27,052 nt of DNA. Source: a virus. Location: IMG/VR virus record IMGVR_UViG_3300045256_000094. One strand, 5' to 3'. The position numbers and the translations under genes were made by a program. The notes below the pieces were generated by a model that worked only from the letters and a program-made list of their open reading frames with translations, was not told the DNA's origin and ran no database searches. Shown in pieces: positions 4,999 to 24,217 of the stretch (position 1 is the first letter of the stretch; every line of letters begins with the position of its first letter).

Positions 4999-4999
4999 A

Positions 5000-5032: not shown

Positions 5033-5039
5033 CTTCAAC

Positions 5040-5444: not shown

Positions 5445-5686
5445 GACTCCCCCTTGTGACACGGGCAATACCACTGCCCCTTCTTACACACCCAGCCGTT
5501 CGCTTGGTTGGTGTCAAGCAGCTTCTTCCCGGCCTGCTTTGCCTCAGTGAGCGTCATGCAAGTCCCGAGTTCGGCAATCTGTAACGTCTGGTCGCAGTCC
5601 GGGTGGGTGCATTCCGCAAACCACTCGGGCCACTCCACAGCGTACAGTTGCCCCTTCGGGGTCTTGATGAAGGGTCTACGAGGCAT
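5441..5686 (-). CDS. Small Cys-rich putative zinc-binding protein
   Basis: Start MPRRPFIK lies 7 nt after the upstream stop. Cys/His motifs CTHPDCDQ and CKKGQWYCPCH. Confidence 0.45.
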   Translation of the reverse strand: MPRRPFIKTPKGQLYAVEWPEWFAECTHPDCDQTLQIAELGTCMTLTEAKQAGKKLLDTNQANGWVCKKGQWYCPCHKGES

Positions 5687-5942
5687 GGACTTCCACGATC
5701 TCCAGGTCGAGGTTGGTGAACTTGTTCTTGTTGTACCCGAAGTCCACACGGATGTCCGGGTAGTTGCTGCGGCCGTCCATGATGAGGATGGTCGCTGTCT
5801 GCTCGTCGGTGGTCACGAAGACCTGCCCGCCGTACTCGCTGTCCCGAAGCTCGAAGTAACTCACGGTGTCACCGTAGCTCTCTTCGTGCATCGGCTCGCC
5901 GACGAGCAGTCGCCCCGTCTTCTTGTTCTTCAGTGCGAACAT
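5676..5942 (-). CDS. Hypothetical protein (88 aa)
   Basis: Internal ATG (MFALKNKK) chosen. The upstream part of the ORF is Arg/Pro junk that overlaps the next gene. Confidence 0.45.
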   Translation of the reverse strand: MFALKNKKTGRLLVGEPMHEESYGDTVSYFELRDSEYGGQVFVTTDEQTATILIMDGRSNYPDIRVDFGYNKNKFTNLDLEIVEVHAS

Positions 5943-5944
5943 CC

Positions 5945-6850: not shown

Positions 6851-6851
6851 G

Positions 6852-7307
6852 TTATTCTCCCCGCTCCTGGTCCCGTTGTTGGTCCCGCTTCTTGATCGTC
6901 TCCCGCTTGTCGTACTCCTTCTTACCCTTGACGACAGCGAGGATGACCTTCGCCTTGCCGCTCTTGATGATGACCCGGAGCGGGACGATGGTGAACCCCT
7001 TCTGCTCGGCCTTCTCGGCGAACTTGGCGATCTCGGCTTTCTTCAGTAAAAGCTTCCGCCGCCGTTCGGGTTCGTGGGTGACGTTCTTGGCGTTCTCGTA
7101 TGGCTCGATCTTGCACTTCACGAGCCAGACTTCCCCGTCCTTCACTTCGGCGTAGCTGCCGTCCAGGGAAATCTTGTGGGCACGAATGCTCTTGATCTCG
7201 TAACCCCGCAGCACCATCCCTGCCTCGACGGTATCGAGGATTTCGTAGTTGTACTCGGCTTTACGGTTGGTGGTAATCGTCACCACCGGCTGCGGTTCGT
7301 TCGACAT
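6852..7307 (-). CDS. smpB: SsrA-binding protein SmpB
   Basis: Characteristic SmpB segments: NRKAEYNYEI...AGMVLRGYEIKSIR, HEPERRRKLLLKKAEI, GFTIVPLRVIIKSGKAKVILAVVKGKK. Length 151 aa. GGAGGGG Shine-Dalgarno. Confidence 0.85.
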   Translation of the reverse strand: MSNEPQPVVTITTNRKAEYNYEILDTVEAGMVLRGYEIKSIRAHKISLDGSYAEVKDGEVWLVKCKIEPYENAKNVTHEPERRRKLLLKKAEIAKFAEKAEQKGFTIVPLRVIIKSGKAKVILAVVKGKKEYDKRETIKKRDQQRDQERGE

Positions 7308-7318
7308 AGCCCCTCCAC

Positions 7319-7358
7319 GAAAAAGCCACGCTGGTAAAGTATACCAACCAGCGTGGCT
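7319..7358 (-). terminator. Intrinsic terminator or attenuator hairpin upstream of smpB
   Basis: Perfect 11 bp inverted repeat, AGCCACGCTGG (7324-7334) with CCAGCGTGGCT (7348-7358), and a 13 nt loop. On the minus strand it is followed by TTTTT, then the smpB Shine-Dalgarno. Confidence 0.45.
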
Positions 7359-7382
7359 GAGGTTGTCAGGCTGATTCCGGCG

Positions 7383-7766
7383 TTACTCGGCGGCAGCCGT
7401 CTCCTTGTCTTCCTTGTCCTTGTTCTCAGCCGCCTTCGCCTCGATGGAGGCCAGGGACTCGCCCCGTGCCAGCGCCTCGATCTTGGTGACGATCTTGCCC
7501 ATCTCCTTGTTGTGCTTCTTCTTCTCGGCGTTGAACCGCCGCTCGACTTCCTCCCACTTCGACTGGTTCTCGAACGCCTGCTCGAACAGCTTGGTGGCGG
7601 CGTCGAGGGCAGCCGCCTCCTTCTTCTTCTTGACGTTGAGCAGGGCTTGGGCGAACACGCCGCCCACGTTCGGGTCGGCGACCGGCGTGTCCTTCGTCGG
7701 GTGGAAGCCGATCAGCTTCACCAACCGGGACAGCGGGTCATTCTGGTTCTGGTTCTCGTCGGCCAT
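7383..7766 (-). CDS. Hypothetical charged (K/E-rich) protein
   Basis: 127 aa. AGGAGGGG Shine-Dalgarno. Confidence 0.55.
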   Translation of the reverse strand: MADENQNQNDPLSRLVKLIGFHPTKDTPVADPNVGGVFAQALLNVKKKKEAAALDAATKLFEQAFENQSKWEEVERRFNAEKKKHNKEMGKIVTKIEALARGESLASIEAKAAENKDKEDKETAAAE

Positions 7767-7807
7767 CTGGGTTGCCCCTCCTGTTGGGCATGAGTAGAAA
7801 CAGTCAC

Positions 7808-8449
7808 TTACGTTCCAGCCAACTCCTCAGCGACATCGACCATCTTGGCGATGATCTTCTCGCCTTCGGCGTTGATCGTTTGAGCCTCGGCGATGATGGT
7901 GTCCATCACGGCGAGCGAGGCGTCCAAGTTCTTGATGTCTCGTTCGATATCGGCCTGAAGCGTCAGGCCAGAGGCCGAAGCTGATCCGGCATGCACTCGT
8001 GCCTCCGTAGCCCACTTGTGGACTTGTTCGATGGTGACGTAACTCTGGTGCCAACCCGACGGCTTGTTGCCGTCAGGTGTGCCGTTGGGAATGCCGATAT
8101 CGTACCACAGCGCCTTGTCGCACAGGGCGGTGACGTAGTTGTTCTTGATGATGCTGCTGTCGATCTTGTAGCCGATGTGCCTGCGGAGGCACACCACGAA
8201 ATGCTGCACACGCTCGATCCGGTCGGCCTTGATGTGTTCCCGCCGGACAATCTCTTTTGCGGAGTTAATGGCTGCGGAGATGGCTTCAACGATCTTCATG
8301 TCGTAATGGTTGCTCATGACCATCTCGAAGTTATCTGGGTTGAGAACGTTCTTGAACACTTGCCGCTCCCGCTTCTTCACGAGCTTGTGTCGCTTCCAGT
8401 AAGCGGTCGAGCCTTGTCTTGGTGGTGCGTCCATGTGCATCCAGAACAT
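7808..8449 (-). CDS. Hypothetical protein (213 aa)
   Basis: Intact ORF. The start is uncertain, since it overlaps the 3-prime end of the upstream gene by 72 nt. Confidence 0.5.
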   Translation of the reverse strand: MFWMHMDAPPRQGSTAYWKRHKLVKKRERQVFKNVLNPDNFEMVMSNHYDMKIVEAISAAINSAKEIVRREHIKADRIERVQHFVVCLRRHIGYKIDSSIIKNNYVTALCDKALWYDIGIPNGTPDGNKPSGWHQSYVTIEQVHKWATEARVHAGSASASGLTLQADIERDIKNLDASLAVMDTIIAEAQTINAEGEKIIAKMVDVAEELAGT

Positions 8450-9573
8450 CCCCGGAATACCATGCCCAGCATTGACCAGTCAACGTCCGAGGCAGCCAGG
8501 AGTTCTCGAACAGTTCGCACCCTGACAGTTGTGCGTTCCGTGTCTTCCGTTACACCAAATGTAGCAGAAAAGGACAGGTTGTCAAACTCGCCCTGCGTCA
8601 GTTCCAGGCCATAAACGAATGCGTGCTGGGCAAGCATCGTCGCCGCAAGCTGTCGCCCACCTAACGGCACCAGTCGCTCCGGGTCAACCTCGATGCCAGT
8701 CTCTTCGGCAAGCTCGGCCACGGCGATCTCTCGTAGATTCGCCGCAAGGTTCCAGCTTGAGCCGCCGGGCAACTCCACGACGTAACACTCCGGGTTTCGC
8801 ACTGCCGTTCTGAACTCCCGGACGAGGACGACTTTCGTGTCCAAAAAATCCTCCGCAGGGAGGTAGGCCACCACGTTCACCGTATCCGGCCGGAACACCA
8901 CGAACTCGTTCTCTTTGAATCGGTTCTCGGCGGCGATGTAAACCTTCGCCCATAAAACGAAAGAGTGTGGCTTACCCTTTACGTCCCAGCGGAACAACAC
9001 CTTAGCGTCGTGTAACTCGTTGCCCTGTTGCCGGTGCCAAGCATACCAGTCTTGGAACGGGTGGGACTTCCAAATCTCGGCCTGGATGTACCGCTCTGCC
9101 CCGGTGCGTAGCTCCCCGTCGCCGATCTGGGCGATGGCGTCCTTACATAAAGCCGTCAGGTCTTCGTGCGGCTCGCCGTACTGGCGGTCCCGGTACAGCC
9201 ACTTCAGATAGGTGTTCTTCTTGGCACCCGGCGGGGCACCGAACACCACTTTCCGAGAGTCGATCCAGGTGCCGAACTCGACGTTCGTCGTGAAGGCGGG
9301 CATCGTCTGGAGTTCCCGTGGAACCCAGAATAGGATCACGTCCGCCATCGTCAGGTGTTTCTTTTCCCACTCCACCTGGAGGTTGTAGTCGTGCGGCTTG
9401 CCGGTCGAGTATTCGGGAACGAAGACCACACCCTCGAAGCCGAGTTGTTCGAGGATGCGGAGAGCTTCGGGACGCCAGGACGGGACATCGGCAGAGCGTG
9501 GCGTCGGACCGGCGAGGAAGATGGATTTAGTGAAGCTGGGCGGGGCTTCTTGGTCTGAGTATACAACTTGCAT
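8377..9573 (-). CDS. Fusion of a nucleoside 2-deoxyribosyltransferase-like N-domain and a C-terminal Nudix hydrolase
   Basis: N-terminal half: IFLAGPTPR...VVFVPE...DVILFWVPRE...TNVEFGTW, a deoxyribosyltransferase/LOG-like fold signature. C-terminal half: LVREFR...VVELPGGS...IAVAELAEETGIEV, a Nudix box. Its ATG overlaps the stop of the upstream gene (TAATG). Confidence 0.65.
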   Translation of the reverse strand: MQVVYSDQEAPPSFTKSIFLAGPTPRSADVPSWRPEALRILEQLGFEGVVFVPEYSTGKPHDYNLQVEWEKKHLTMADVILFWVPRELQTMPAFTTNVEFGTWIDSRKVVFGAPPGAKKNTYLKWLYRDRQYGEPHEDLTALCKDAIAQIGDGELRTGAERYIQAEIWKSHPFQDWYAWHRQQGNELHDAKVLFRWDVKGKPHSFVLWAKVYIAAENRFKENEFVVFRPDTVNVVAYLPAEDFLDTKVVLVREFRTAVRNPECYVVELPGGSSWNLAANLREIAVAELAEETGIEVDPERLVPLGGRQLAATMLAQHAFVYGLELTQGEFDNLSFSATFGVTEDTERTTVRVRTVRELLAASDVDWSMLGMVFRGCSGCTWTHHQDKARPLTGSDTSS

Positions 9574-10278: not shown

Positions 10279-11016
10279 TTACCTCGCACATTTGTCGCAG
10301 ACTGCGTTCTGGTTCCGCAGGTCCGCAAGGTGTTGACCATTCCTGTCCACAGCGTAGCACCAAGCTCCGTGATGGACCCCAGAAGTCGTGTACAACGTCG
10401 TCCGGTTCTTACACCGCTTGCTCTCGTTCTGGCAGGTAATCCGCCAGCGAACGGCAAACACGCCGTTCGGCAACTTCACCAGTGTACCACTGTCTCCGAA
10501 AATGTCATGCGAAACCCGGAAGCCGATGTAAGCGTCCAGGGTTTGCTTCGCCGCCGTGATCGAGTCCAGGTCGTTCGTCGTCACCCGGTTGTTGTTAATC
10601 ACGTTGATCCCGGCACTGTTGATGAACCCCTTCGCCGCCTCGGGGTAGATCAACTCCAGGTTCAGTCTCACCCGCTCCATCCGCAGCGGCTCCCAGAGCT
10701 TCATCATGCGGCGGATGCGTGCGGCGTTCGGACTCTCCGTCCATCCTTTCATCCGGTCAAAGAAGAACGGTTCCTGGCCCGCCTTCTCGAACAGACGCCC
10801 GCCCTTGAGCTTCAGCCGCTCCCGGTAGTACAACGCCCGACCCAACTGGTCGTCTGGCGGCAGGTCGGCACACGGCTCCCAGAGCGTGAAGATGGTCCGG
10901 TTGTCGAACACCACCTTCGAGGCGACGTTGGCCCCGAGCGGTGTCAGTTCGATGCTCTCCGGGTCGTACCAGGGGTGCGACTCGATGGTCAAGTCGCCCA
11001 CACGCTTGTGTGCCAT
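10279..11016 (-). CDS. Hypothetical protein with a C-terminal Cys cluster
   Basis: 245 aa. TAATG overlap with the upstream ORF. Confidence 0.55.
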   Translation of the reverse strand: MAHKRVGDLTIESHPWYDPESIELTPLGANVASKVVFDNRTIFTLWEPCADLPPDDQLGRALYYRERLKLKGGRLFEKAGQEPFFFDRMKGWTESPNAARIRRMMKLWEPLRMERVRLNLELIYPEAAKGFINSAGINVINNNRVTTNDLDSITAAKQTLDAYIGFRVSHDIFGDSGTLVKLPNGVFAVRWRITCQNESKRCKNRTTLYTTSGVHHGAWCYAVDRNGQHLADLRNQNAVCDKCAR

Positions 11017-11581
11017 TACAGTAGCTCCGTAGCGAGTTGGCGGTAGTCGGCGTGAATCTTTTCGGCGGTTGCCGCCCCGAAACGATTCAAGATGTCGATG
11101 TCTCGCTCTTTGACGAGGGTGGTCAGCCCCCTCGCACGGTTCAGGTACTTCGCAGCGTAGCGACGGTCCGTCACGGCGAAGTCCTTCACGTTACGGTAGC
11201 GGTCGGCCAGCTTCAGGACGACCACTTCAATCGGCTTGTCCTTGTACTCAGTCAAGTGGGCTTCCTTCGCCGCCTGATAGTCCTTCGGCAGTGTTCGTCA
11301 GGCAGCCGGTCCCGGAAGGTCAGCATCTCGACCCACCCGGCGACCTTCTCGCCGTACTTGAGCTTGATGCCTGCGACGGTCATCCCGGCGTCCTCCACGG
11401 TGTCGTGGAGCATCGCCGCAGCCCACAGTTCCGGCTCTTGTTCCCGAGAAATCTGCCACAGAGCCAGTTGCTCGGCCACCCCGAGGACGTGGATCATGTA
11501 CGGGACTTGGGTGCCCTTTCGCACCTGTTCCCCGTGCAGCATCACGGCGTCCATGTAGGCTTTGTGGACAATATCGCTCAT
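11016..11581 (-). pseudogene. Rel/SpoT-type HD-domain (p)ppGpp hydrolase (small alarmone hydrolase) interrupted by a frame change
   Basis: The 5-prime ORF (11252-11581) carries the HD signature: PYMIHVLGVAEQLA...AAAMLHDTVEDAG...YGEKVAGWVEMLTFRD. The 3-prime ORF (11016-11255) carries the downstream conserved block, KEAHLTEYKDKPIEVVVLKLADRYRNV. This is in another frame, minus one relative to the first, with the switch near 11290-11300. The two halves together give about 188 aa, the normal length for this family. Confidence 0.6.
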
Positions 11582-11600
11582 CTCGGCTCCTTTTTGGTTC

Positions 11601-11635
11601 CGCCTCTATTCTACTAGAAGTAGAGGGTTTGTAAA
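11601..11635 (-). promoter_or_regulatory. Putative sigma70-like promoter for the hydrolase gene, with a 15 bp palindrome
   Basis: On the minus strand: TTTACA (-35), 16 nt spacer, TAGAAT (-10), then an AAAGGAG Shine-Dalgarno. An inverted repeat, TCTACT-aga-AGTAGA (11610-11624), sits in the spacer. Confidence 0.3.
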
Positions 11636-11637
11636 AT

Positions 11638-12399
11638 ATGATCCACGCTAAAAAGGACAACTACCAGGGGGTCAACTGGTATCACTGCTTCAAGTTCCCG
11701 GACGGCTCCGAAACGCACGGGCACGACCGGCCGACTGCGGAGAAGGTGTCAGCCATTTTCGACCCAATCGACATCAAAGGCAAGACCGTTCTGGACATTT
11801 GCGCCTGGGACGGCTACTACTCGTTTGAGGCGGAAAGGCGTGGGGCTAAAGCGGTTGTGGCGAACGACCACTACTGTTGGAGCGGACCGGGTTGGGGGAC
11901 AAAGCGTGGATTTGAACTGGCCCGTGAACTTTACGGGTCGAAAGTCCTCGACTACGAATGCGAACTGATGAAAATCGACCCGAACAACGTCGGTCAGTTC
12001 GACGTTGTTCTCTTCCTCGGCGTCCTGTACCACCGGATCGAGGGCTTCCGCTGCCTGGAAATCTGCACCAACGTCTGCAAGGACATGCTGGTGGTGGAAA
12101 CCCTCACGCTCAACAGCGAAGATTGTGTTATTGAATACCTGCCGTCGGACCACATCTACGGGGATTACACCAACCAGATAGCCCCGACAACCAGGGCTGT
12201 TGTAGAATGTCTGTTAAGGTGTAACTTCCGAATGGTGTCATACAACCACTACGCTAAGGTCAGCGAGAGGTATAACAGAACTGTCTTCCACGCCCGGCTC
12301 AGTAAAGCAGTGTTGGTCGAACACGAACCCCCGGCACCGTTTCGGCAATTTGCAGGAGTCTGTCAGACGCCACGTTTATTTTGGCAGCATCGGCCTTAA
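11638..12399 (+). CDS. Class I SAM-dependent methyltransferase, CmoB/DUF1698-like
   Basis: GVNWYHCFKFPDGSETHG, VLDICAWDGYYS (motif I), FDVVLFLGVLYHR and LVVETLTLNSEDCVIEY align by eye to E. coli CmoB: WRKGPF...GVNIDTEW, ILDVGCGSGYH, GVLYHR, LVLETLVIDGDENTVL. Confidence 0.65.
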   Translation: MIHAKKDNYQGVNWYHCFKFPDGSETHGHDRPTAEKVSAIFDPIDIKGKTVLDICAWDGYYSFEAERRGAKAVVANDHYCWSGPGWGTKRGFELARELYGSKVLDYECELMKIDPNNVGQFDVVLFLGVLYHRIEGFRCLEICTNVCKDMLVVETLTLNSEDCVIEYLPSDHIYGDYTNQIAPTTRAVVECLLRCNFRMVSYNHYAKVSERYNRTVFHARLSKAVLVEHEPPAPFRQFAGVCQTPRLFWQHRP

Positions 12400-13441
12400 T
12401 GCGGTCCACCGAAATCTGAACCAATTCCGGTTTGTCGAAGTCTAGGTCAAGCTTCCGCAGGAAGTTCACCTTGATCGGGTACTTCGTGGACGCATCCTCG
12501 ATCTTCTTCTGGGCGTCACGGAACAACTCAACGTTGAAGTTATCCAATGTGATGAGCGGCACGTTGCAGGTCGGATTGAACTCCACTTCATCCATACCCA
12601 ACTCAGCCGCAATCCTCACCATATCAACAACCTCGTGAATGTTAAGTAGGTTGATGTTATTGTGAACACGAGCCACCTGACTCGGGGTACGCTTCTCGTT
12701 ATACTTCTTAGCCTGTTGCATGATCTTCTCAAACAACGGCAAGCGGCGGATCAGCTTATACGTCTCCGGTGTGGCGGCGTCCAGCGAGAACGTGAGACTA
12801 CTCTTGGGGTATTCCAAGAACCGCTCAATGCGGCTATCGGTTAACACCGTGCCGTTGGTGGTTGTACTGATGGCAACCCGGTCCTTGCGTTCATCTATAC
12901 CGAGCCACGTTGCGATTTGGAATAGCTTGTCTTTCCAGAACGCCTCGGCTACTCCCTGGATGTGAACAAGATTGAAATTGAAGGCATAGGGCTTCAACCG
13001 CCTGCACACTTCCTGCAACTTATCCTTCTGGCTCTCGAATCGTAGATTACGTTCGCACATCACGCAAGCCGGGTTCTTCTCCGTCGGCTTGAGTCCGCCG
13101 ATGTTGCAGTGTTGAGACGGCAAGTCAATCTCCAACTCCGTCGGTACGGCCCGGACATTGTATTCTTTAGCTTGTGCCGCAAGTTCGTCCGCCTTCATGT
13201 GTGCGAACGGGCAGCACTTCAACATAGAGCATGTCGAGTGCAACTTGTTATTCAAAGTATCCCGGCGAATCTCATTAGCCAAATCACTGTTCCAGATATC
13301 CTCGAATGTATCCTTTAACAGATTACCCAGACACTTACGTTCTTGGAAGCAGCAAAAAGTTACATCGCCTTCGCAGGTTACTTTAATGCGGGTAAACGGC
13401 AAGGCACAGAACGTCTTCACCGGGTAGTATTCATGAATCAT
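12299..13441 (-). CDS. Atypical radical-SAM enzyme, paralog 1
   Basis: N-terminal Cys-rich module: FCALPF...TCEGDVTFCCFQ...CLGN...IWNSDLA...C...CCPF. Core motifs: HCNIGGLKPTEKNPACVMC (Cx13Cx2C), GVAEPFWK (glycine-rich), ISTTTNGT, FSLDAATPETY. Confidence 0.7.
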   Translation of the reverse strand: MIHEYYPVKTFCALPFTRIKVTCEGDVTFCCFQERKCLGNLLKDTFEDIWNSDLANEIRRDTLNNKLHSTCSMLKCCPFAHMKADELAAQAKEYNVRAVPTELEIDLPSQHCNIGGLKPTEKNPACVMCERNLRFESQKDKLQEVCRRLKPYAFNFNLVHIQGVAEAFWKDKLFQIATWLGIDERKDRVAISTTTNGTVLTDSRIERFLEYPKSSLTFSLDAATPETYKLIRRLPLFEKIMQQAKKYNEKRTPSQVARVHNNINLLNIHEVVDMVRIAAELGMDEVEFNPTCNVPLITLDNFNVELFRDAQKKIEDASTKYPIKVNFLRKLDLDFDKPELVQISVDRIKADAAKINVASDRLLQIAETVPGVRVRPTLLY

Positions 13442-14555
13442 TCTTCACCTTGATCTGTAGTTGTACGAGTTCTTGCGACGGGGCAAGTTCCTGGCCGACT
13501 GGCGGCGGCAGCCGATCAAACGGCTTGGAGTAGAACAGCGGCACCCCCAACTGCTGTGCCCGGTGCATCGCCTTCTCCGAGTTCTCTTTGAATATCTTGA
13601 GGTTGCGTGGGTTCAACAACAAGTCATTCATATGAACCCGGCCACACTGGTCATGAGTCGGCAACATGATGACTTTATCTACTCGCAGTTCAGCCGCCGT
13701 CTCCACCATCTTTACCATCTCGTGTACGTTAATCAGGTTGATGTTATTGTAGATGATAGCTTGGTGACGCTGCGAGCCGCCGTTGCGATCCCGGAGCATC
13801 ATGTAATATCTCATGTTCCTGACGACAAGGTTATAGGCGTCAATTCGCCTGATCTTCTGGTACGTCTCCGGGCTGCCTGCGTCCACCGAGAACTGCATGT
13901 CGGACTCCATTACCTCGTCGAAGTACCGCTCGATGATCTTCTCCGTGAGGCAGGTGACGTTGGTGTTCGTAGTGAAACGGATGTGGTGTTTGTGTTCGGC
14001 GAACCCCACGAGATCAAACACCCGGAACACGGCATCCTTCCAGAACGGTTCGGCCACCCCCAGCACGCACAGGTGCTTCAAGTACGGCATGAGCGGCTTC
14101 GCCTTCTCGCAGAGCGTGTCGGTGATCGGCGGCTGTTTGTGGAAGTCGTAGTTCCGGCAGCACATGATGCAGGCCGGGTTGTCGTCGCCTGGGTCTTCCC
14201 CGCCGATGTTGCAGTGGGTGTTGGGCAGGCAGATTTCCAGGTAAGTCGGGTAATCGTGGTTCTTGTAGCTGCGGAACTCCTCCGGCTCCAAGTCCTTCAC
14301 CAAGTACGGGCAGGTGTTCCAACTCTTGCAGACCGGGTGCATCTGGTTCTGGAGGGTCTGTGAGCGAATATCCTTAGCCAACTCACTGTTCCATAACTCC
14401 ATTACTGTCGTATCCCCGAGGATGTTCCCTAGCTGTGTAAGCTGGTAGCAACACATGGACACGTCGCCCCAGCCGTTGAGGATCAACTTGGTGAAGGGCA
14501 ACGAGCAGAAAGCCTTGTGTGTTCTTTCCGGGATTTCGGAAGTGCGATGGAGCAT
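13431..14555 (-). CDS. Atypical radical-SAM enzyme, paralog 2
   Basis: Same architecture as paralog 1: AFCSLPF...SMCCYQ...LGN; HCNIGGEDPGDDNPACIMCC; GVAEPFWK; TTNTNVT; FSVDAGSPETY. Overlaps paralog 1 by 11 nt. Confidence 0.7.
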   Translation of the reverse strand: MLHRTSEIPERTHKAFCSLPFTKLILNGWGDVSMCCYQLTQLGNILGDTTVMELWNSELAKDIRSQTLQNQMHPVCKSWNTCPYLVKDLEPEEFRSYKNHDYPTYLEICLPNTHCNIGGEDPGDDNPACIMCCRNYDFHKQPPITDTLCEKAKPLMPYLKHLCVLGVAEPFWKDAVFRVFDLVGFAEHKHHIRFTTNTNVTCLTEKIIERYFDEVMESDMQFSVDAGSPETYQKIRRIDAYNLVVRNMRYYMMLRDRNGGSQRHQAIIYNNINLINVHEMVKMVETAAELRVDKVIMLPTHDQCGRVHMNDLLLNPRNLKIFKENSEKAMHRAQQLGVPLFYSKPFDRLPPPVGQELAPSQELVQLQIKVKNDS

Positions 14556-14567
14556 AGAGGTATTTAC

Positions 14568-15299
14568 ATGGCCCCGAGGAAAAAGTTAACTAAGGAACAA
14601 TGGGCAGAGCGATTTGCCGACGCCAAGCACGGCCACGTCCTCTGGGACGGCTGGGCCTCCGACCCGTACAACCCCGAACACGCCTACACGTCGAGCCACC
14701 AGTTCTACAACCACGCCAAGCGGCACGGCTTCTTCAAAACCGGCAGCAGCGTCCTCGACCTGGGCTGCGGCAACGGCCGGGTGCCCATCGCCCTGACCGA
14801 GCATTACGTCAAGTACGTCGGGGTTGACCCGGTTCAAAAGAGTATCGACTTCTGCAAGAAGGCGTTCGCCGATTGGCCCGACTTCCAGTTCATCTTCATG
14901 GACATCAAGAACGAGTCGTTTAACCCGGAGGGGGCCATTGACCCCGCCGCCCTGACGTTGCCCTTCCCTGACGGCCACTTCGATAACGTAATCTGCTACT
15001 CCGTGTTCACACACCTACAGGAGATCACCGTCGCCACCCGGTACATCATTGAAATCCTGCGTGTACTGAAGGAAGGCGGCAAGCTGTTCACGTCCTGGTA
15101 TCGCTGCCCGCCCAACCCCCTCGACAAGTTCGTGGGCAGGACGGTGTTCTTGGAGCGTGACATCCTGAACCTGCTCCAAGACTTCTACTTCAACGAGACG
15201 TATGGCGGGACGACCCCGCAGTATTACGACCAGTGGGCATTGTTCTGTACGAAGGGAAAGCTGCAATCAGAGAGTGATCTGCACGAGTTGGTCAGCTAG
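14568..15299 (+). CDS. Class I SAM-dependent methyltransferase
   Basis: VLDLGCGNGRV (motif I), FDNVICYSVFTHL (motif II), LKEGGKL (motif III). Alternative starts lie at 14517 and 14547, both of which would overlap the divergent radical-SAM gene start. Confidence 0.7.
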   Translation: MAPRKKLTKEQWAERFADAKHGHVLWDGWASDPYNPEHAYTSSHQFYNHAKRHGFFKTGSSVLDLGCGNGRVPIALTEHYVKYVGVDPVQKSIDFCKKAFADWPDFQFIFMDIKNESFNPEGAIDPAALTLPFPDGHFDNVICYSVFTHLQEITVATRYIIEILRVLKEGGKLFTSWYRCPPNPLDKFVGRTVFLERDILNLLQDFYFNETYGGTTPQYYDQWALFCTKGKLQSESDLHELVS

Positions 15300-16310
15300 T
15301 CCCATGTCGAGCGGCCGGATGAAGTTGTACGGCACGTTCAACTTCTGACACTCGGCAATGATGTCCTGCTGGGCCTTTTTGAACAACCCGCAGTTCTGTT
15401 CGTTCACCAGGATCGGCGTGTTGAAGCCGTCCGTCGGATTGAACTCAATGTACTCCACGTTCGCCTTGTGGGCGATGCGCACCATCCCAACAACTTCGTG
15501 TACGTTGTGTATGTTGATGTTGTTGTGAATGCGGAGGAACTGGCGTGCCCTCACCCGTTCCTTCGAGAAGGCGTACAGGTTCTCCAGAATCTTGTCGAAC
15601 AGCGGCAGGATTCTGATCTTCTTGAACGTCTCCGGTGTGGCTGCGTCGATGGAGAAGTTCGTGATGCTCCGGGGCACCCGCCGCAGGTATTCCTCCCGGA
15701 CGTGTTTGTGGAACAGGGTGCCGTTGGTCGTCGTGCTGATCGTGATCTGGTGCTTGTACTTGTCGAATTCCAGAATGTCCAGCATCTCGAACAGCAGGTT
15801 CTTGTAGAACGGCTCGGCAATGCCCTGGATGTGAATCTGGTGCAGGTTCGGGATCACATGCTTGATCCGGGCCAGCACTTCCTTCAGGTGATCCTTCTCC
15901 GGCTTGAAGAACGGGGCGGACCGCTCGCACATGATGCAGGCCGGGTGTGCGGGGCCGGGGTTCTCCAGGCCGATGTTGCAGTGGGTGTTCGGCAGGTCGA
16001 TCTCAAGGAACGTCGGATACTCGTTGTAGATGACCTGGACGGGCGGGCCGGGGTTCTTCATCAAGGCAAACGGACACCCCGGCACCTTGCACTTCTTGTG
16101 CAACCTGCCTTCGAGGGTGTCCGTGCGGATGGCCTCGGCCTCTTCGCCGAACCAGATGTCATCGAACGGTTTTTCGAGAACGTTGCCGATGTAGGCGTCG
16201 GACTCTGCCGCCAGCGGGTCAACCCGCTGGAAGCAGCACATGGCACAGTTGCCCTCGGCTGTCACTCGAAGGCGGTTGAATGGGTACTGACAGAACGCTT
16301 GGACTTCCAT
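15267..16310 (-). CDS. Atypical radical-SAM enzyme, paralog 3
   Basis: AFCQYPF...AMCCFQ...IGN; HCNIGLENPGPAHPACIMC (Cx13Cx2C); GIAEPFYK; ISTTTNGT; FSIDAATPETF. Confidence 0.7.
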   Translation of the reverse strand: MEVQAFCQYPFNRLRVTAEGNCAMCCFQRVDPLAAESDAYIGNVLEKPFDDIWFGEEAEAIRTDTLEGRLHKKCKVPGCPFALMKNPGPPVQVIYNEYPTFLEIDLPNTHCNIGLENPGPAHPACIMCERSAPFFKPEKDHLKEVLARIKHVIPNLHQIHIQGIAEPFYKNLLFEMLDILEFDKYKHQITISTTTNGTLFHKHVREEYLRRVPRSITNFSIDAATPETFKKIRILPLFDKILENLYAFSKERVRARQFLRIHNNINIHNVHEVVGMVRIAHKANVEYIEFNPTDGFNTPILVNEQNCGLFKKAQQDIIAECQKLNVPYNFIRPLDMGLADQLVQITL

Positions 16311-16316
16311 GACCTA

Positions 16317-16973
16317 TTATAGATCGAGATCGAGATACTTCTGCTTCAGGAAACCGTAGTTCCGGTCCGCACAGATGCAGACGTACCGAGTCCCGTCCAG
16401 CGTGAAGTCGAAGTCCTTGTGGTAGTGGCCGAAGACGTAGAGCTTCGGGCGGTGGTGGCAGAACATGGCGTCGAGCATCTGGTTGGTCCGGGTCTTGATT
16501 AACGACTCGGAGTAGCCCATGCTCTTAGCGAACGCCGGATTCAGCCCCAGGGCTTGCAGGATGTGCAGCGGCCCCTCGTGCGACAGCAGGATGTCGGGCT
16601 TGTACTCGGCGTAGGCGGCGACGGCTTCGTTGCACCGCTCCATGCTCAGTTCTTCCTCTTCCCACCAGTCCACGCCGACGGAGCGGTACATGTGGTCGAT
16701 TGACCACGCACCCCGGACGAAGAACATCTTCTCCTTCAGTTCGGGAATATGCGTGATGGGACCGAAGTCACCCAGGCAGTAGGGCGACTGGTTGATCTCG
16801 TCGTAGTTGTCGTGGTTCCCGCCGAAGAAGCGGTGCCGAGCGAGATCGAGCTTGTACAGCCAGTTGTACCGGAAACCGTAGTCCCCGATCTGGATGGAGT
16901 AATCCGCCTCGCCCGCCAGTGTCAGATGGTGGTCGGCCTGCCCGTGGATGTCGCCGATCAGCCGGAGTTTCAC
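16317..16973 (-). CDS. Calcineurin-like metallophosphoesterase
   Basis: GDIHG, GNHD and GHYH motifs. Lies 6 nt downstream of radical-SAM paralog 3. Confidence 0.7.
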   Translation of the reverse strand: MKLRLIGDIHGQADHHLTLAGEADYSIQIGDYGFRYNWLYKLDLARHRFFGGNHDNYDEINQSPYCLGDFGPITHIPELKEKMFFVRGAWSIDHMYRSVGVDWWEEEELSMERCNEAVAAYAEYKPDILLSHEGPLHILQALGLNPAFAKSMGYSESLIKTRTNQMLDAMFCHHRPKLYVFGHYHKDFDFTLDGTRYVCICADRNYGFLKQKYLDLDL

Positions 16974-17542
16974 GCCTGCTCTCCCATGCCTTCGAGTTCA
17001 CGGAAGAAGTCGTCCGTGTCGAGTGATGCCGTACCCCTGTTGGACGGCCTGCGTGCGGCACCAGGACGCCGGGGCGTGTCACGCCCGGTAGCACACGAGT
17101 CTGGCACGCCCAGGTTCTTCAAGATGCCCTTGAAGTCGCCGTCACGTTTCAGTCCGTCTGTGTTGACTTCACTGCGGACAGTCGGCTCGAACAGGCCGAC
17201 GGCCTGGATGAAGCAACGCTTGCAGTATACTGTTTCCTGCACATCTGTCACTTCAATTTTCTCCCCCGGCTTGACTTCGGGGAAGTTGTTGCCGACCAGC
17301 CCGCCCCGGCAGTTCGGGTCGGCAACGTAGATGTTGCCGTGGACGACGAAGCCCTCTTCAGGCTTGTAGATCGGCTGGTCGCAGTGGTCACAGAGGTAAT
17401 ACTGGCAACGCCGCATCTTCTCTTTTTGCTTGAGAGTGCGCTTGATCTCGTTGAGAGATGCGTTGCTGTTTTCGGCCGGAAGCTTGACGGGCTTGGGTGC
17501 GGTGGCTTCCTTGAATGCCTTCGCTCGTGGGTCGTTCGACAT
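16970..17542 (-). CDS. Hypothetical protein with Cys pairs (putative zinc ribbon)
   Basis: 190 aa. CQYYLCDHCDQ...CKRC. ATGA overlap with the phosphoesterase gene. Confidence 0.55.
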   Translation of the reverse strand: MSNDPRAKAFKEATAPKPVKLPAENSNASLNEIKRTLKQKEKMRRCQYYLCDHCDQPIYKPEEGFVVHGNIYVADPNCRGGLVGNNFPEVKPGEKIEVTDVQETVYCKRCFIQAVGLFEPTVRSEVNTDGLKRDGDFKGILKNLGVPDSCATGRDTPRRPGAARRPSNRGTASLDTDDFFRELEGMGEQA

Positions 17543-17566
17543 CTTCGGCCTCCTTGCCGATCTTCC

Positions 17567-17854
17567 TCAATAGACAGAGATTAGGTTACACCTTTCCCCG
17601 TCCTCGGTCAAGCCGACGTGCGGCTTGCCCTTGATTTCCTTGCGTTCGATCAGGTACTCGGCTGCCAACTCGTCCAGCAGCACGTTCAGTTCGGCCAGTT
17701 CGATGCCCTCGATGGCCCGGCAGTCCCGGTGGTTGTTGGGGATGTCCAGCACCGTCTCGACACTGGCGAACTGTGCCCCGCCAGCGGCGTTGGCGACGGC
17801 TTGCAGGGCGGCGATCTGCCGCTCGTTCAGGTTCTCTCCGATGAACCGGCTCAT
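17567..17854 (-). CDS. Hypothetical protein (95 aa)
   Basis: Internal ATG (MSRFIGENL) chosen because it overlaps the upstream stop as ATGA. The longer N-terminal extension is Arg-rich junk. Confidence 0.45.
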   Translation of the reverse strand: MSRFIGENLNERQIAALQAVANAAGGAQFASVETVLDIPNNHRDCRAIEGIELAELNVLLDELAAEYLIERKEIKGKPHVGLTEDGERCNLISVY

Positions 17855-18270
17855 TTCTTCCCCTTCTTCTTGGAGTCGTCCTCTTCCTCTTCCACGAGCG
17901 GGGCGTTGGGGTCGATGCGGTAGCAGGTTTCCATCCGCTTCCGGTCCCAAACGATCACCACCCGTCCTTCCTCGAAGGCGGCGTTGTTGGCGATGTCCTT
18001 CGCATCGGCCAGCACGTCCGTCTCGTCGAAGCTCTTGTACTTGTTCTTCTCTTTCGCATCTTGCAGCGAGATGTCGAACTGCTTGCCGTCCCGCCGCCAC
18101 TCCTCGCCCGGAGGGTATTCCTTCTCCGGCGTCCGTGGCTTCTCTGGCTTGGCTTGTGGCTCTGCGGCCGGTTCTTCCGTAGCCGTGGCTGTCGGGGCGT
18201 CGTCCTCGTCGGCCATCCCAGGCAGAGGGATATCCAGGTCGAGCTTCTTCTTAGACTTGCCACGAGCCAT
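17851..18270 (-). CDS. Hypothetical acidic/lysine-rich protein
   Basis: 139 aa intact ORF. Confidence 0.5.
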   Translation of the reverse strand: MARGKSKKKLDLDIPLPGMADEDDAPTATATEEPAAEPQAKPEKPRTPEKEYPPGEEWRRDGKQFDISLQDAKEKNKYKSFDETDVLADAKDIANNAAFEEGRVVIVWDRKRMETCYRIDPNAPLVEEEEDDSKKKGKK

Positions 18271-18613
18271 CGGCGACTTCCTCCAACCCGGTTATGTCTT
18301 CATTGAAGAGATAGGTGGAAGCGGTCCGCCCGTCGGCCAGGGTGATTTCCTGTCTGCGGAAGAGGCCGGTGTCCACTGCCTCCACTTTATCAAGGATGGG
18401 CAGGATTGTAAAAGGGATTTCGTAGACTTCGCCGTGGACGCCTGGGCCAGTGGGGTCTTCCACCATGCCGGGGAACCAGTTGACCCGATATAAACGAAAA
18501 GCAGGCCCGGTATGGGCCTGCCCTTTGTACTCGGCACCGTTGTTCTGGAGATACTTGTTGAGCCTACCGCCTTGCTTTAAGGTGCCATAGCAGAAGAGGA
18601 GTGTTGTTTCCAT
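18251..18613 (-). CDS. Gamma-glutamyl cyclotransferase / AIG2-like family protein
   Basis: LFCYGTLKQGG...GEVYEI...LDKVE pattern typical of the GGCT/AIG2 fold. Confidence 0.6.
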   Translation of the reverse strand: METTLLFCYGTLKQGGRLNKYLQNNGAEYKGQAHTGPAFRLYRVNWFPGMVEDPTGPGVHGEVYEIPFTILPILDKVEAVDTGLFRRQEITLADGRTASTYLFNEDITGLEEVADGSWQV

Positions 18614-19152
18614 AATGACTCAGCCATCCTTAGCACGTCGGCATCGCTGTAGTCCGACTTCGCCTTATTGTAGATCACGCACACGATTCGACAGTTGTCC
18701 TTCGTGTAGCCCTTGCCGTTGTTCGCCCGGTCAATGGACGGTCGAAACGGCGTGTGAGCCACATTATCCTGTCTTTCGAGTAGCAAGTCAACTCCAGTCG
18801 CCTCGCACTTCATCGTCTTGAGCCGTGCTTCCAACCACTCTCTGTCCAGGTCGCACTCCAGCCCATTTGTCTTCGCCCGGTTCTTGGCGGCGGTGAGCAA
18901 GTTCGTGACCATGCCAGAGAATGTGGCGTTGTAGTCCTTGCGGTATGATCTGTCGTATGCCTTGTGCTTCTCGGTCTTCCGAAGCTCCTTCTGGTAAGAC
19001 GTGAAGTAATCGGCACGCTTGTTGTATTGGTTGTAGCCACCAGACTTTTTATACTCGTTGTAGCAGGGCTTACAACGGCTACCCGGCTTGCCCTTGCTTT
19101 GAGTGAACTGATCGAGCGGCTTTGGCTCTTGGCAGATAGAACATTTCTTCAT
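18577..19152 (-). CDS. HNH endonuclease with an N-terminal zinc ribbon
   Basis: CSICQ...CKPC at the N-terminus. C-terminal HNH-like block: AHTPFRPSIDRANNGKGYTKDNCRIVCVIYN. Confidence 0.6.
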   Translation of the reverse strand: MKKCSICQEPKPLDQFTQSKGKPGSRCKPCYNEYKKSGGYNQYNKRADYFTSYQKELRKTEKHKAYDRSYRKDYNATFSGMVTNLLTAAKNRAKTNGLECDLDREWLEARLKTMKCEATGVDLLLERQDNVAHTPFRPSIDRANNGKGYTKDNCRIVCVIYNKAKSDYSDADVLRMAESLWKQHSSSAMAP

Positions 19153-19197
19153 GTCCTATCTATGCGTGTATGGCGATTTCTCACACCATAAACGAAC

Positions 19198-19219
19198 ACG
19201 CCCCGGATAACCGGGGCGT
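19198..19219 (-). terminator. Terminator-like hairpin downstream of csrA
   Basis: Perfect 9 bp stem, ACGCCCCGG-ataa-CCGGGGCGT, followed on the minus strand by GTTCGTTTAT. Confidence 0.45.
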
Positions 19220-19232
19220 TGGGACAACAACA

Positions 19233-19439
19233 TCACATCGCCTTCCTTGTTGGCTGAGTCGCATCGGGAGCGGGGCGACCGCTCTTGATGGCCTCGTAGA
19301 CTTCCTCCCGGTGGACGGGCACGTCTTTCGGTGCCACGATGCCGAGGCGAACCTTGTCGCCCCGGATTTCCACGACGGTGATCTGGATGTTGTCGCCGAT
19401 GACGATGGACTCGTTCGGCTTCCTCGACAGTACCAGCAT
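19233..19439 (-). CDS. csrA: Carbon storage regulator CsrA
   Basis: [55 protein letters not shown] Shine-Dalgarno. The ORF upstream of this ATG is Arg-rich junk. Confidence 0.85.
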
Positions 19440-19495
19440 CGCAGGACTCCTTTCCAAGAGTCGGGTAGAGTGGGACGGGGAACACGCTTCCAGCC

Positions 19496-19530
19496 GAACC
19501 ATTTATACCCACCACTGGTCCGGGTGTCAA
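19496..19530 (-). promoter_or_regulatory. Near-consensus sigma70-type promoter for csrA
   Basis: On the minus strand: TTGACA (19530-19525), an exact 17 nt spacer, TATAAAT (19507-19501). The -35 element overlaps the clpX stop codon. Confidence 0.5.
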
Positions 19531-20786
19531 GCAGCTTTATTCAAAGGTTTGCTCTGTCCGCAGACCACGCCCTTGTCGATGACAAGGTGCTGGCCGCTCA
19601 GGTCCGGCAGGTCGAACATGATGTCGTTCATGAACGACTCGATCACCGCCTTGAGCGCCCGTGCCCCGGTGCCCTTCTCCTTTGCACGCTTTGCAATCTC
19701 ATCCACGGCGTCGTCCGTGAACTCCAGGTTCACCCCGTCCATCAGGGCGATCTTACGATATTGCTTCGTGAAGGCGTCACGAGGCTGGGTTAGGACGTTC
19801 TTCAGATCGTCCACGCTCAGTTCCCGGAGCGTCGTGACCACCGGCAGACGACCGACCAGTTCGGGGATCAGCCCGTACTGCTCCAGGTCATCCTGCGTGA
19901 CCTGGGCCAGCAGTTCGTTCCGTTCCTTGTGCTTGTCGGTATCCGGGACGTGGCTGGCCCCGAACCCGATCTGGCTCGTCTTCCCGATCCGCTTGCGGAT
20001 GATGTCTTCCAGGCCGACGAACGACCCGCCGCAGATGAACAGGATGTTGGTCGTGTCCACCGGGATGTACGTCTGCTCCGGGTGCTTCCGCCCGCCCTGG
20101 GGCGGCACGTTGGCCGTCGTCCCCTCGATCAGCTTGAGGAGGCTCTGTTGGACGCCCTCACCGGACACGTCACGGGTGAGACTGACGTTGCCGCCGGTTT
20201 TGCGGAGCTTGTCAATCTCGTCGATGTAAATGATGCCCCGCTGTGCCGCCTCGATGTCGAAGTTGGAGGCGTGGAGCAGCTTCAGGATCAGGTTCTCCAC
20301 GTCCTCGCCGACGTACCCGGCCTCGGTCAGAACCGTAGCGTCCCCAATCGCAAAAGGGACGTTCAGCTTCTCCGCAAGCGTCTTGGCGAGGAGAGTCTTG
20401 CCGCTGCCGGTCGGCCCGATCAGCAGCACGTTGGACTTCTCCAGCTTGACTTCCTTCAGTTCAGGGTCGTCAATGACAGTCGCCAGAGCGTCCATGATCC
20501 GCTTATAATGGTTGGTCACGGCGACCGACAGGTGCCGCTTCGGCCCCTCTTGACCAATGATAACCCGGTCCAGGTGGGCCATCATGTCCTTCGGAGTCGG
20601 CAACTTGCCCACCCGCTGTTCCCGAGTGCTGGCAGCGATCATCTCCCGTTCGAGGACGTTGGCGCAACGACCAATGCACTCGCCGCAGATCAGATTGTTG
20701 CCCACTTCCGAGCGGACCATCGCACCGACTTTGGTGCTAGGCTGCCCGCAAAAGCTGCACTTAGGAAAAGGCTTCTTAGTTGCCAT
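19527..20786 (-). CDS. clpX: ATP-dependent protease ATPase subunit ClpX
   Basis: N-terminal C4 zinc finger (CSFCGQ...CGEC), Walker A (GPTGSGKT) and a GYVG pore loop. 419 aa. AAGGAG Shine-Dalgarno. No clpP gene lies adjacent. Confidence 0.9.
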   Translation of the reverse strand: MATKKPFPKCSFCGQPSTKVGAMVRSEVGNNLICGECIGRCANVLEREMIAASTREQRVGKLPTPKDMMAHLDRVIIGQEGPKRHLSVAVTNHYKRIMDALATVIDDPELKEVKLEKSNVLLIGPTGSGKTLLAKTLAEKLNVPFAIGDATVLTEAGYVGEDVENLILKLLHASNFDIEAAQRGIIYIDEIDKLRKTGGNVSLTRDVSGEGVQQSLLKLIEGTTANVPPQGGRKHPEQTYIPVDTTNILFICGGSFVGLEDIIRKRIGKTSQIGFGASHVPDTDKHKERNELLAQVTQDDLEQYGLIPELVGRLPVVTTLRELSVDDLKNVLTQPRDAFTKQYRKIALMDGVNLEFTDDAVDEIAKRAKEKGTGARALKAVIESFMNDIMFDLPDLSGQHLVIDKGVVCGQSKPLNKAA

Positions 20787-20875
20787 GTTGTCTCCTTCTT
20801 GTGAGCGATCCCAACGTACTGCGGCTTCCTATCTTACAGCCGTACACCCCGAGGGTAAACGGCTTTTAACTGCCT

Positions 20876-21640
20876 TCACTGACGGTACTTACGTCGATAT
20901 TCCCGCATCTCAACTTGGACATCATTCAAAATGTCTAACGACTCTTGTGTGGGTGCGGGAACTCTGTAAACCTTTGGCAACGGGGGCATTCGGGCGATTT
21001 CTTGCTCGGCCCCCAACCACATGATGATCGACAGAACGATCAACCACCCCATGTACGGTGCGTTGACGTGGAAGAACGGTGCCCCGAGAGCGTACACGCC
21101 CAAAGCCACGGCTGCTACCCTAGTAACCCAGACGAAGGTGAGGGTCGAAAGACGCTCGTTTTTCGTCAAAGCCGTCAAAATGCTCCGGCCGATCTTCGAC
21201 CCGTCCAGCGGAAACACCGGGACGAGGTTGAACACCAGCATGATGAGGTTCAGGACGAACAGCGTGGCGAAGAAGTCGGCCAGATACCCGCCGTGTTCCC
21301 CGAGGAAGTACAACGGGAAGGCTAGAACGAAATTCACGAGCGGGCCACAGGCAATGATCCAGAATTCCTCCCACGGCGACTGCTTCCGGTCGTCCACCCA
21401 GGCCAGCCCTCCGAACAAGTGCAGGGTGATAGAATCGACCCGCAGGCCAAAGTGCCGGGCGGCGAAGCAGTGACCGAGTTCGTGCAGCAGCACGATCCCG
21501 AACATCACGACCATCACCGGAAGTAGTTTGTAATTGAGCGAGGCTTGGATCGCCAAGAATATCCACCAACTCCAGTGGATATGGATGGGAATGCCGGAAA
21601 TCTTACCGATGTTGATGTTCATGCGTGTCATCCCTGACAT
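20876..21640 (-). CDS. M50-family (site-2 protease-like) membrane zinc metalloprotease
   Basis: HELGH (HExxH) and NLVPVFPLDGSKI (LDG motif), with several hydrophobic segments. The start could alternatively be at 21622. Confidence 0.7.
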   Translation of the reverse strand: MSGMTRMNINIGKISGIPIHIHWSWWIFLAIQASLNYKLLPVMVVMFGIVLLHELGHCFAARHFGLRVDSITLHLFGGLAWVDDRKQSPWEEFWIIACGPLVNFVLAFPLYFLGEHGGYLADFFATLFVLNLIMLVFNLVPVFPLDGSKIGRSILTALTKNERLSTLTFVWVTRVAAVALGVYALGAPFFHVNAPYMGWLIVLSIIMWLGAEQEIARMPPLPKVYRVPAPTQESLDILNDVQVEMREYRRKYRQ

Positions 21641-24215: not shown

Positions 24216-24217
24216 GC

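Follow-up and report, generated by a model that had tools for sequence, protein, structure and literature searches.

Gene content of the locus

The window analyzed here, a 27,052-nucleotide (nt) stretch of DNA from IMG/VR virus record IMGVR_UViG_3300045256_000094, encodes between positions 12299 and 16310 three radical S-adenosylmethionine (SAM) proteins, here termed P1, P2, and P3, in each of which a predicted twitch domain precedes the radical SAM core. Taken together, the evidence presented below makes it reasonably probable that P1, P2, and P3 have diverged from one another as paralogs of a radical SAM enzyme that has two clusters and its domains in inverted order, with a possible role in sugar tailoring. 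An initial annotation of the window, made from the sequence alone, had proposed three paralogous open reading frames (ORFs) at this locus, and three such ORFs are indeed present, with a pairwise identity of 38-46%:

12299-13441, minus strand: P1, 380 amino acids (aa), predicted N-terminal twitch domain and radical SAM core (ORF plus Pfam and NCBIfam matches)
13431-14555, minus strand: P2, 374 aa, predicted N-terminal twitch domain and radical SAM core (ORF plus Pfam and NCBIfam matches)
15267-16310, minus strand: P3, 347 aa, predicted N-terminal twitch domain and radical SAM core (ORF, Pfam and NCBIfam matches, and AlphaFold2 model)

The three copies had also been described as a tandem array. 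This holds for P2 and P1, which are adjacent on the same strand and overlap by 11 nt, but not for P3, which is cut off from P2 by a methyltransferase gene on the plus strand (MTase2; see below). P3 is the best conserved of the paralogs, with more than 280 homologs and an ortholog identity of 62-93%. The P2 orthologs in syntenic loci share 54-60% identity with P2, and the length of P1 is maintained in orthologs with 80-86% identity. A scan of positions 11000-17600 for sigma-70 promoters and intrinsic terminators returned counts not above those in shuffled sequence and thus no operon evidence.

Radical SAM core and expanded cluster motif

The Pfam Radical_SAM family (PF04055) matches P1 and P3 with 41.1 and 30.9 bits, respectively (gathering score 29.5), and the match begins at profile position 10, indicating that the first Cys is displaced. 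An AlphaFold2 (AF2) model of full-length P3 has a predicted local distance difference test (pLDDT) score of 94.8 and a predicted template modeling (pTM) score of 0.90, and its Foldseek matches, over ~250 columns, include SuiB, viperin, SkfB, anSME, DesII, BlsE, and MoaA. The model and the fold matches thus predict for P3 the radical SAM barrel that the initial annotation had presupposed and, together with an invariant Cys triad, uphold its proposal that the trio consists of radical SAM enzymes whose cluster motif is extended and non-canonical. It was likewise right in that no Cys-bearing C-terminal extension is present: there is no conserved Cys after C128 (P3 numbering) and no C-terminal cluster domain. 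The cluster motifs, as read from the translations, are the following:

15927-15980, minus strand: P3 cluster motif CNIGLENPGPAHPACIMC, C111-x13-C125-x2-C128
14160-14213, minus strand: P2 cluster motif CNIGGEDPGDDNPACIMC, C115-x13-C129-x2-C132
13055-13108, minus strand: P1 cluster motif CNIGGLKPTEKNPACVMC, C112-x13-C126-x2-C129

The motif in the three proteins conforms to H-C-N-I-G-[G/L]-x9-[P]-A-C-[V/I]-M-C. The earlier reading, HC-NIGG...PAC-xMC in all three, is correct with respect to the C-x13-C-x2-C spacing (three of three) but not with respect to P3, which has NIGL in place of NIGG. In an alignment of 108 homologs (mean column identity 40%), the three motif Cys are invariant and are the only invariant Cys of the core, the loop residues N112, G114, P118, and A124 (P3 numbering) are invariant or near-invariant, and the SAM-binding "GGE" position is occupied by G-[IV]-A-E-P-F, with G.AEPF invariant. 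All 223 close homologs recovered in two database searches carry C-x12-14-C-x2-C, which places the motif far beyond chance.

The family was delimited by an exhaustive profile search of 1.84 billion representative proteins and comprises 126 clusters (50% identity) at E < 1e-30. The spacing between Cys1 and Cys2 among the relatives is 3, 5, or 11-14 residues, with one member at x11. Canonical CNT[TA]C[ILM]MC occurs at the same site in P0252, P0283, and P0284 (the canonical forms seen in the family are CNTTCIMC, CNTACMMC, and CNTACLMC), and C-x5-C-x2-C, in the form CNINP[PS]C[IL]MC, occurs there in P0248, P0274, and P0315 (e.g., CNINPPCIMC and CNINPSCIMC). All of these spacing variants align between the beta1 segment "LEIDLP..HCN" and the downstream SAM-binding G-[IV]-A-E-P-F. 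At the level of sequence, this alignment of spacing variants at one site is the strongest evidence for a true cluster motif with an inserted loop. C-x13-C-x2-C would then correspond to canonical C-x3-C-x2-C into which a structured loop of ~10 residues (N-[IV]-G-G-x2-P-x4-P-A) has been placed between Cys1 and Cys2.

It could be argued that C-x13-C-x2-C is not a functional SAM cluster site and that the proteins are degenerate pseudo-enzymes or rely on other ligands, given that the Pfam Radical_SAM match leaves out the first Cys and that P2 scores under the gathering score for this family. Such a loss of function is very improbable, however. The motif Cys are the only core Cys to have remained invariant, N112, G114, P118, and A124 have been kept along with them, and relatives with canonical spacing align exactly at the motif site. 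Further, the loop is modeled in P3 with a pLDDT of 92-93, the G.AEPF motif is invariant, and the enzyme QueE demonstrates that a C-x14-C-x2-C site can function (PMC4389238).

The N-terminal twitch domain

The N-terminal ~85 aa of each protein are predicted, from both sequence and model, to be a BtrN-type twitch domain with one auxiliary cluster and not a two-cluster SPASM domain. The boundaries, Cys residues, and E-values for the Pfam SPASM family (PF13186) are as follows:

16056-16310, minus strand: P3 predicted N-terminal twitch domain, residues 1-85, with C7, C25, C26, C74, and C79 (SPASM E-value 2.6e-10)
14292-14555, minus strand: P2 predicted N-terminal twitch domain, residues 1-88, with C17, C35, C36, C76, and C82 (SPASM E-value 1.5e-8)
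13193-13441, minus strand: P1 predicted N-terminal twitch domain, residues 1-83, with C12, C23, C30, C31, C37, C71, C76, and C77 (SPASM E-value 4e-11)

The SPASM family matches P1, P2, and P3 with 43.5, 35.2, and 40.9 bits, respectively, all above the gathering score of 21.5, and in each protein the match spans residues ~7-80 and profile positions 1-64/66 of 67. The N-terminal SPASM- or twitch-like module of the initial annotation is therefore real as a module of the auxiliary-cluster type, recognized by Pfam in three of three proteins, but it is not a full SPASM domain. SPASM domains are defined by a seven-Cys motif, CX9-15GX4C-gap-CX2CX5CX3C-gap-C, and hold two auxiliary clusters (PMC6231123). 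In the trio, the first half of this motif is present as C-x12-G-x4-C, whereas the CX2CX5CX3C block has shrunk to C-x4-C; because the seven-Cys motif is incomplete, with five Cys conserved, the module cannot be assigned as a two-cluster SPASM domain. Its position also departs from the C-terminal location of SPASM domains, since it occupies residues 1-85, upstream of the core. The estimate of roughly eight Cys per module fits P1, which has eight, but not P2, which has five, or P3, which has six. The N-terminal Cys that are kept across the family of 108 homologs number five (C7, C25, C26, C74, and C79 in P3 numbering), consistent with the conservation that the initial annotation expected of them. 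In addition, the position of P1 C37 is a Cys in 54% of aligned family sequences, mostly of the P1 type.

Twitch domains bind a single auxiliary cluster and have one Cys on each side of a beta-hairpin and two following helix alpha2' (PMC6231123). The model of P3 fits this order, with C7 followed by strands at residues 13-16 and 21-23, then C25, a helix at residues 49-66, and finally C74 and C79. When the family profile was compared with all sequences in the PDB, BtrN was the sole match, with profile positions 6-90 aligning to the BtrN twitch domain (residues 163-249). Twitch Cys 1, 2, and 4 correspond column for column with those of BtrN, while Cys 3 is offset by 2 residues; the BtrN ligands were assigned from the exactly four Cys held by the aligned twitch segment, together with the statement that four twitch Cys ligate the cluster (PMC6231123). 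A model of the isolated N-terminal 92 residues (pLDDT 82.5) likewise has BtrN (PDB 4m7s) as its best fold match in the PDB (probability 0.99, query TM-score [TMq] 0.62, 80 columns), after which SPASM domains, those of SuiB, PqqE, and CteB, come as weak fold matches.

The Joint Genome Institute (JGI) gene call for P3 (P0002, 324 aa) begins at Met24 and thereby drops the first twitch Cys and the hairpin (16242-16310), which is why SPASM is missing from the precomputed Pfam list of P0002. The 347-aa start used here is backed by orthologs.

Domain order and its possible origin

SPASM and twitch domains have been described as C-terminal extensions that follow the radical SAM core (PMC9012708). Literature searches on N-terminal twitch or N-terminal SPASM domains returned nothing, and a search on twitch domain-containing radical SAM proteins returned classical enzymes only. 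The arrangement is nevertheless not novel, as it has already been named in NCBIfam NF033640 ("twitch domain-containing radical SAM protein," N_Twi_rSAM), which is the top NCBIfam match for P1, P2, and P3 (E 1e-20 to 1e-22) and which is characterized, as is the trio, by an N-terminal twitch domain followed by a radical SAM core. The trio is thus a new phage-centered variant, with an expanded cluster loop, sub-threshold scores, and multiple copies, of an architecture that is catalogued but experimentally unstudied.

Compared with its closest classical relatives, the trio has the two domains in swapped order, in agreement with the permuted architecture proposed initially: a hidden Markov model (HMM) of the N-terminal module matches their C-terminal twitch domain (E 1e-14 to 1e-21), and an HMM of the core matches the N-terminal halves of the same proteins. 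Distant relatives include polyproteins, up to 1927 aa in length, that are built as tandem core-twitch-core-twitch(-core-twitch) (P0328, P0333, P0334, and P0363) and further distant forms (P0358, P0361, and P0365), and proteins with a twitch-core-twitch-core arrangement are also present among the relatives. Because the nearest classical relatives include such tandem (core-twitch)n polyproteins, it is plausible, as judged from these sequences, that the order arose by permutation through duplication and fission.

Distribution and phage context

The window derives from a source contig of 169 kb, and relatives of the trio occur both in IMG/VR viral genomes (158-459 kb) and in metagenome contigs (477-693 kb); all homologs are metagenomic and carry generic names only. 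The clade is present almost exclusively in a single huge-phage lineage, and the genes that surround the trio look like those of huge phages. The features flanking or interleaved with the three genes are the following:

14517-15299, plus strand: MTase2, class I SAM-dependent methyltransferase, likely start ATG 14568 (Methyltransf_11 E-value 1.3e-16)
11638-12399, plus strand: MTase1, second SAM-dependent methyltransferase (Methyltransf_9 E-value 2.3e-9)
4089-9573 and 18251-27007, minus strand: genes for RNA ligase, SmpB, a nucleoside deoxyribosyltransferase-like protein, GGACT, ClpX, an M50 peptidase, three family 2 glycosyltransferases (GT2), and phosphoribosyl pyrophosphate (PRPP) synthetase
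18577-19152, minus strand: ORF of 191 aa with N-terminal CxxC...CxxC and an HNH/homing-endonuclease-like look

MTase2 diverges from P2 and converges on P3, with the 3' ends of MTase2 and P3 overlapping by 33 nt (15267-15299). It was not found in the syntenic loci L001-L006 and is an accessory gene. The PADLOC "mad2" model matches it partially (E 8e-17), over the methyltransferase region of the model; this is probably a generic likeness between methyltransferase domains. MTase1, also an accessory gene, converges on P1 with a 3' overlap of 101 nt (12299-12399), such that its 3' end overlaps the coding sequence of the Cys-free C-terminal tail of P1 (~35 aa). MTase1 has weak matches to TIGR04290 (E 1.9e-16) and CmoB (E 3e-15), both far under the family cutoffs.

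Synteny shared with related phage loci comprises PRPP synthetase, three GT2 genes, (M50), ClpX, the radical SAM paralogs, an HD_4 gene, the nucleoside deoxyribosyltransferase-like gene, and RNA ligase. The 191-aa ORF had no Pfam match and no BLAST match (E <= 1e-5) in seven related phage loci, and a UDP-glucose-dehydrogenase-like fragment among the surrounding genes was recognized by eye only. No tRNA, tmRNA, or Rfam family was detected in the window, despite the presence of the SmpB gene. Neither a tblastn search with P3 nor a megablast search with 22 kb of the window against 50,697 GenBank phage records returned a match. Similarly, PHROGs contains no family matching P1 or P2, its match to P3 is weak and limited to the core, and PADLOC returned no match for the radical SAM proteins, indicating that the trio does not belong to a known phage or defense family.

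The number of paralogs per related phage locus ranges from one to four, on both strands. What lies beside them varies as well, and neither of the window's two methyltransferases is conserved: NodU/CmcH carbamoyltransferases are encoded in two loci (two genes in L005 and one in L006), L007 carries a different methyltransferase and an AsnB-like amidotransferase beside or between the paralogs, and L003 and L017 have no gene between their directly abutting paralogs. LAGLIDADG homing endonuclease genes stand among or next to the paralogs in L006 (11057-11830) and L016 (4023-4940), and the gene call for the P3-type protein next to the latter is shortened to 325 aa. Fusions to repeated "GYVDG..GWAWDP" modules and, by eye, one to a sulfotransferase-like region were also seen among homologs (P0229, N-terminus; P0231, C-terminus; P0284, N-terminus).

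A search of 185,579 GTDB species genomes yielded six loci (L008-L013), five of which are in metagenome-assembled genomes (MAGs) of Bdellovibrionota. There, the protein takes the form of a single-copy fusion of ~600-650 aa with an extra N-terminal domain (P0240, P0245, P0250, and P0263), and these N-terminal extensions of 200-310 aa have no Pfam match. Such fusions could offer a clue to which hosts this phage lineage infects or to a source from which genes are exchanged. One of the loci, L009 (882 kb, a Bdellovibrionales MAG), is bacterial, as it carries RpoD and DnaG. The idea that all contigs of 600-880 kb are bacterial was considered and rejected, since loci that share synteny with the window either belong to IMG/VR viral genomes or are phage-like in their content.

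Proposed enzyme and alternative substrates

In the mechanism proposed here, the partial TIM-barrel core is predicted to bind the SAM-cleaving [4Fe-4S] cluster through C111, C125, and C128 (P3 numbering), and, as suggested by sequence and model, the N-terminal twitch domain probably holds one auxiliary [4Fe-4S] cluster, with C7, C25 (C26 being a conserved neighbor), C74, and C79 as likely ligands. Each enzyme would cleave SAM reductively, and the resulting 5'-deoxyadenosyl radical would abstract a hydrogen atom from its substrate, a carbohydrate or nucleotide sugar. The twitch cluster might accept the second electron, as proposed for BtrN, or position the substrate, as in MoaA. The separate paralogs probably perform separate tailoring steps. 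The initial annotation had suggested sequential radical chemistry by the trio on one substrate; this is possible but unsupported. The copy number varies (one to four), and the transcription of P3 is separate from that of P1 and P2.

Radical tailoring of a carbohydrate or nucleotide sugar is the best guess as to function, tentatively offered on the basis of the gene neighborhood and the BtrN-like twitch domain. Four bacterial plasmid loci that encode radical SAM proteins with the twitch-then-core order (three identified by HMM and one by eye) are all of the glycan type:

Methylomagnum locus: three glycosyltransferases (one unclassified and two GT4), polyprenyl synthase, AsnB, UbiA, and an ABC transporter
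Paracoccus locus: nucleotide-sugar dehydrogenase, GT25, and another glycosyltransferase
Candidatus Manganitrophus locus: five glycosyltransferases, an alginate-lyase family protein, and an ABC transporter
Azospirillum locus: two radical SAM proteins, two FkbM methyltransferases, one carbamoyltransferase, and two sugar epimerases/dehydratases

The gene mix of the Azospirillum locus is the same as that of the phage island, and the accessory genes that vary together with the phage paralogs are typical of small-molecule and sugar tailoring enzymes.

Several observations weigh against this assignment or against its parts. With regard to the enzyme itself, P2 scores 26.7 bits against Radical_SAM, just under the gathering score, and NF033640 scores P1, P2, and P3 at 72.8, 71.5, and 78.7 bits, far under its cutoff of 170 bits. 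In the twitch domain, the post-helix Cys pair is C-x4-C in P1 and P3 and C-x5-C in P2 as compared to C-x2-C in BtrN, and either C25 or C26 could be the cluster ligand. With regard to the substrate, dependence of the carbohydrate assignment on gene neighborhood as its sole basis is counted as a weakness. The adjacency of the GT2 genes is weak evidence because the whole phage region is syntenic, and genes of nucleotide metabolism (HD_4, the nucleoside deoxyribosyltransferase-like gene, PRPP synthetase, and RNA ligase) are equally near the trio.

The last of these observations is also the starting point for a different substrate. It is conceivable, if unlikely, that the trio acts on a free nucleotide or on nucleic acid, either tRNA or DNA, and not on sugars, as do MoaA, viperin, TYW1, and QueE. 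The conserved immediate neighbors, an HD_4 phosphohydrolase and the nucleoside 2-deoxyribosyltransferase-like gene, speak for this reading, as do PRPP synthetase, RNA ligase, and SmpB elsewhere in the region and the weak likeness of MTase1 to CmoB (tRNA U34). MoaA HMMs match P3 at 1e-8, viperin, MoaA, and TYW1 are among its structural neighbors, and MoaA is itself a twitch enzyme in which the auxiliary cluster binds GTP (PMC9012708). Yet the scores to MoaA, CmoB, and viperin are all far under the family cutoffs, and the synteny of the whole region within the phage lineage means that the adjacencies may be incidental to the trio. The genes that do vary together with the paralogs encode carbamoyltransferases and methyltransferases of the small-molecule type, and the bacterial relatives of the same architecture reside in glycan loci, not in loci for nucleotide modification. 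Those glycan loci, together with the fact that BtrN, the best twitch match, acts on a sugar, also speak against a third class of substrate, namely that the trio comprises peptide or protein maturases (of the type that acts on peptides made by the ribosome and modified after translation [RiPPs] or of the anSME type) introducing crosslinks, epimerizations, or oxidations into a phage peptide or structural protein. This we regard as improbable, more so than action on nucleotides, even though most characterized SPASM and twitch enzymes act on peptides (PMC9012708) and the strongest structural matches include SuiB, SkfB, anSME, and CteB. One relative, L017, has a standalone Peptidase_C39 gene ~4.5 kb from its paralogs, and the paralogs of L001 have small ORFs (66-117 aa) between them. 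Across the compared loci, however, no small ORF is conserved beside the paralogs (short peptides could escape such a comparison), the corresponding space being taken by a methyltransferase in the window and absent in L003 and L017, where the paralogs abut, and Pfam and NCBIfam scans detected no RiPP recognition element (RRE) or peptide-binding domain. As to the surroundings of L017 (477 kb), a WGR/PARP-domain gene also stands a few kb from the paralogs, the C39 and WGR/PARP genes being at 13601-14344 and 15899-17104 of that locus.

Returning to carbohydrate tailoring, a more elaborate scheme can be drawn, although as a whole it is speculative and unlikely to hold in every part. The island may be a modular phage cassette in which N-terminal-twitch paralogs combine with swappable methyl-, carbamoyl-, and amidotransferases to build an unprecedented decorated sugar or nucleotide sugar on the virion or the surface of the infected cell, with the domain order having arisen by fission of (core-twitch)n polyproteins. 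The insertion in QueE has been suggested to mediate the docking of a reductant; in the phage proteins, the loop may dock a phage- or host-encoded reductant or partner.

The trio does not represent a new kind of enzyme, and its value lies in providing a tractable new subfamily. A clade of 126 clusters in which the auxiliary-cluster domain precedes the core provides a natural experiment on the way in which that cluster gains access to the active site and on whether the order of the domains is important, and the graded loop lengths (3, 5, and 11-14) offer matched natural variants with which to ask what such insertions do. The trio also marks a variable tailoring island in huge phages, the product of which may include glycan or nucleotide modifications that are new and that bear on the recognition or evasion of the host.

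Comparison with known systems

Among the systems with which the trio can be compared, NF033640 is the closest in architecture. Its member WP_221067113.1, encoded by the Methylomagnum ishizawai plasmid pRS11DPr1, has the same twitch-then-core order, and NF033640 and the trio have the twitch signature C...G-x4-CC...W...C-x-C in common. The Methylomagnum protein differs in that it has a canonical CNLECVMC motif and a twitch C-x2-C pair, whereas the trio has C-x13-C-x2-C in the core and C-x4-C (P1 and P3) or C-x5-C (P2) in the twitch domain. Unlike this example, the clade of the trio is multi-copy and has its members in huge phages and Bdellovibrionota.

BtrN (PDB 4M7S and 4M7T), the 2-deoxy-scyllo-inosamine dehydrogenase of butirosin biosynthesis, is the founding twitch enzyme, with a single auxiliary [4Fe-4S] cluster and a carbohydrate-like substrate. 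It is much shorter (~250 aa), and its twitch domain is C-terminal and its radical SAM motif canonical, in contrast to the N-terminal twitch domain and extended motif of the trio; the sequence-level match between the two is confined to the twitch domains. The reverse is seen in QueE of Burkholderia multivorans (C-x14-C-x2-C; PDB 4NJG), which has an extended Cys1-Cys2 loop, as does the trio, in a site that is otherwise canonical (PMC4389238). However, QueE has a minimal beta6/alpha3 core and, unlike the trio, no auxiliary cluster domain, indicating that the loop insertion is convergent. The insertion "of the kind described for some QueE enzymes" in the initial annotation is therefore apt as an analogy but not as homology to the QueE loop; a QueE-type homology was rejected, as the trio shares neither homology with QueE nor its minimal beta6/alpha3 core.

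The classical relatives with C-terminal twitch or SPASM domains (nearest TIGR04317 and TIGR04311; P0352, P0356, and P0367) have both a core and a twitch domain homologous to those of the trio. They differ in the order, core and then twitch, in that some are tandem polyproteins, and in a loop that is shorter than that of the trio. Many of them carry CNINPPC[IV]MC (C-x5-C-x2-C), a spacing with a published precedent in HmdB (PMC4389238) and one that recurs in some of the N-terminal-twitch members.

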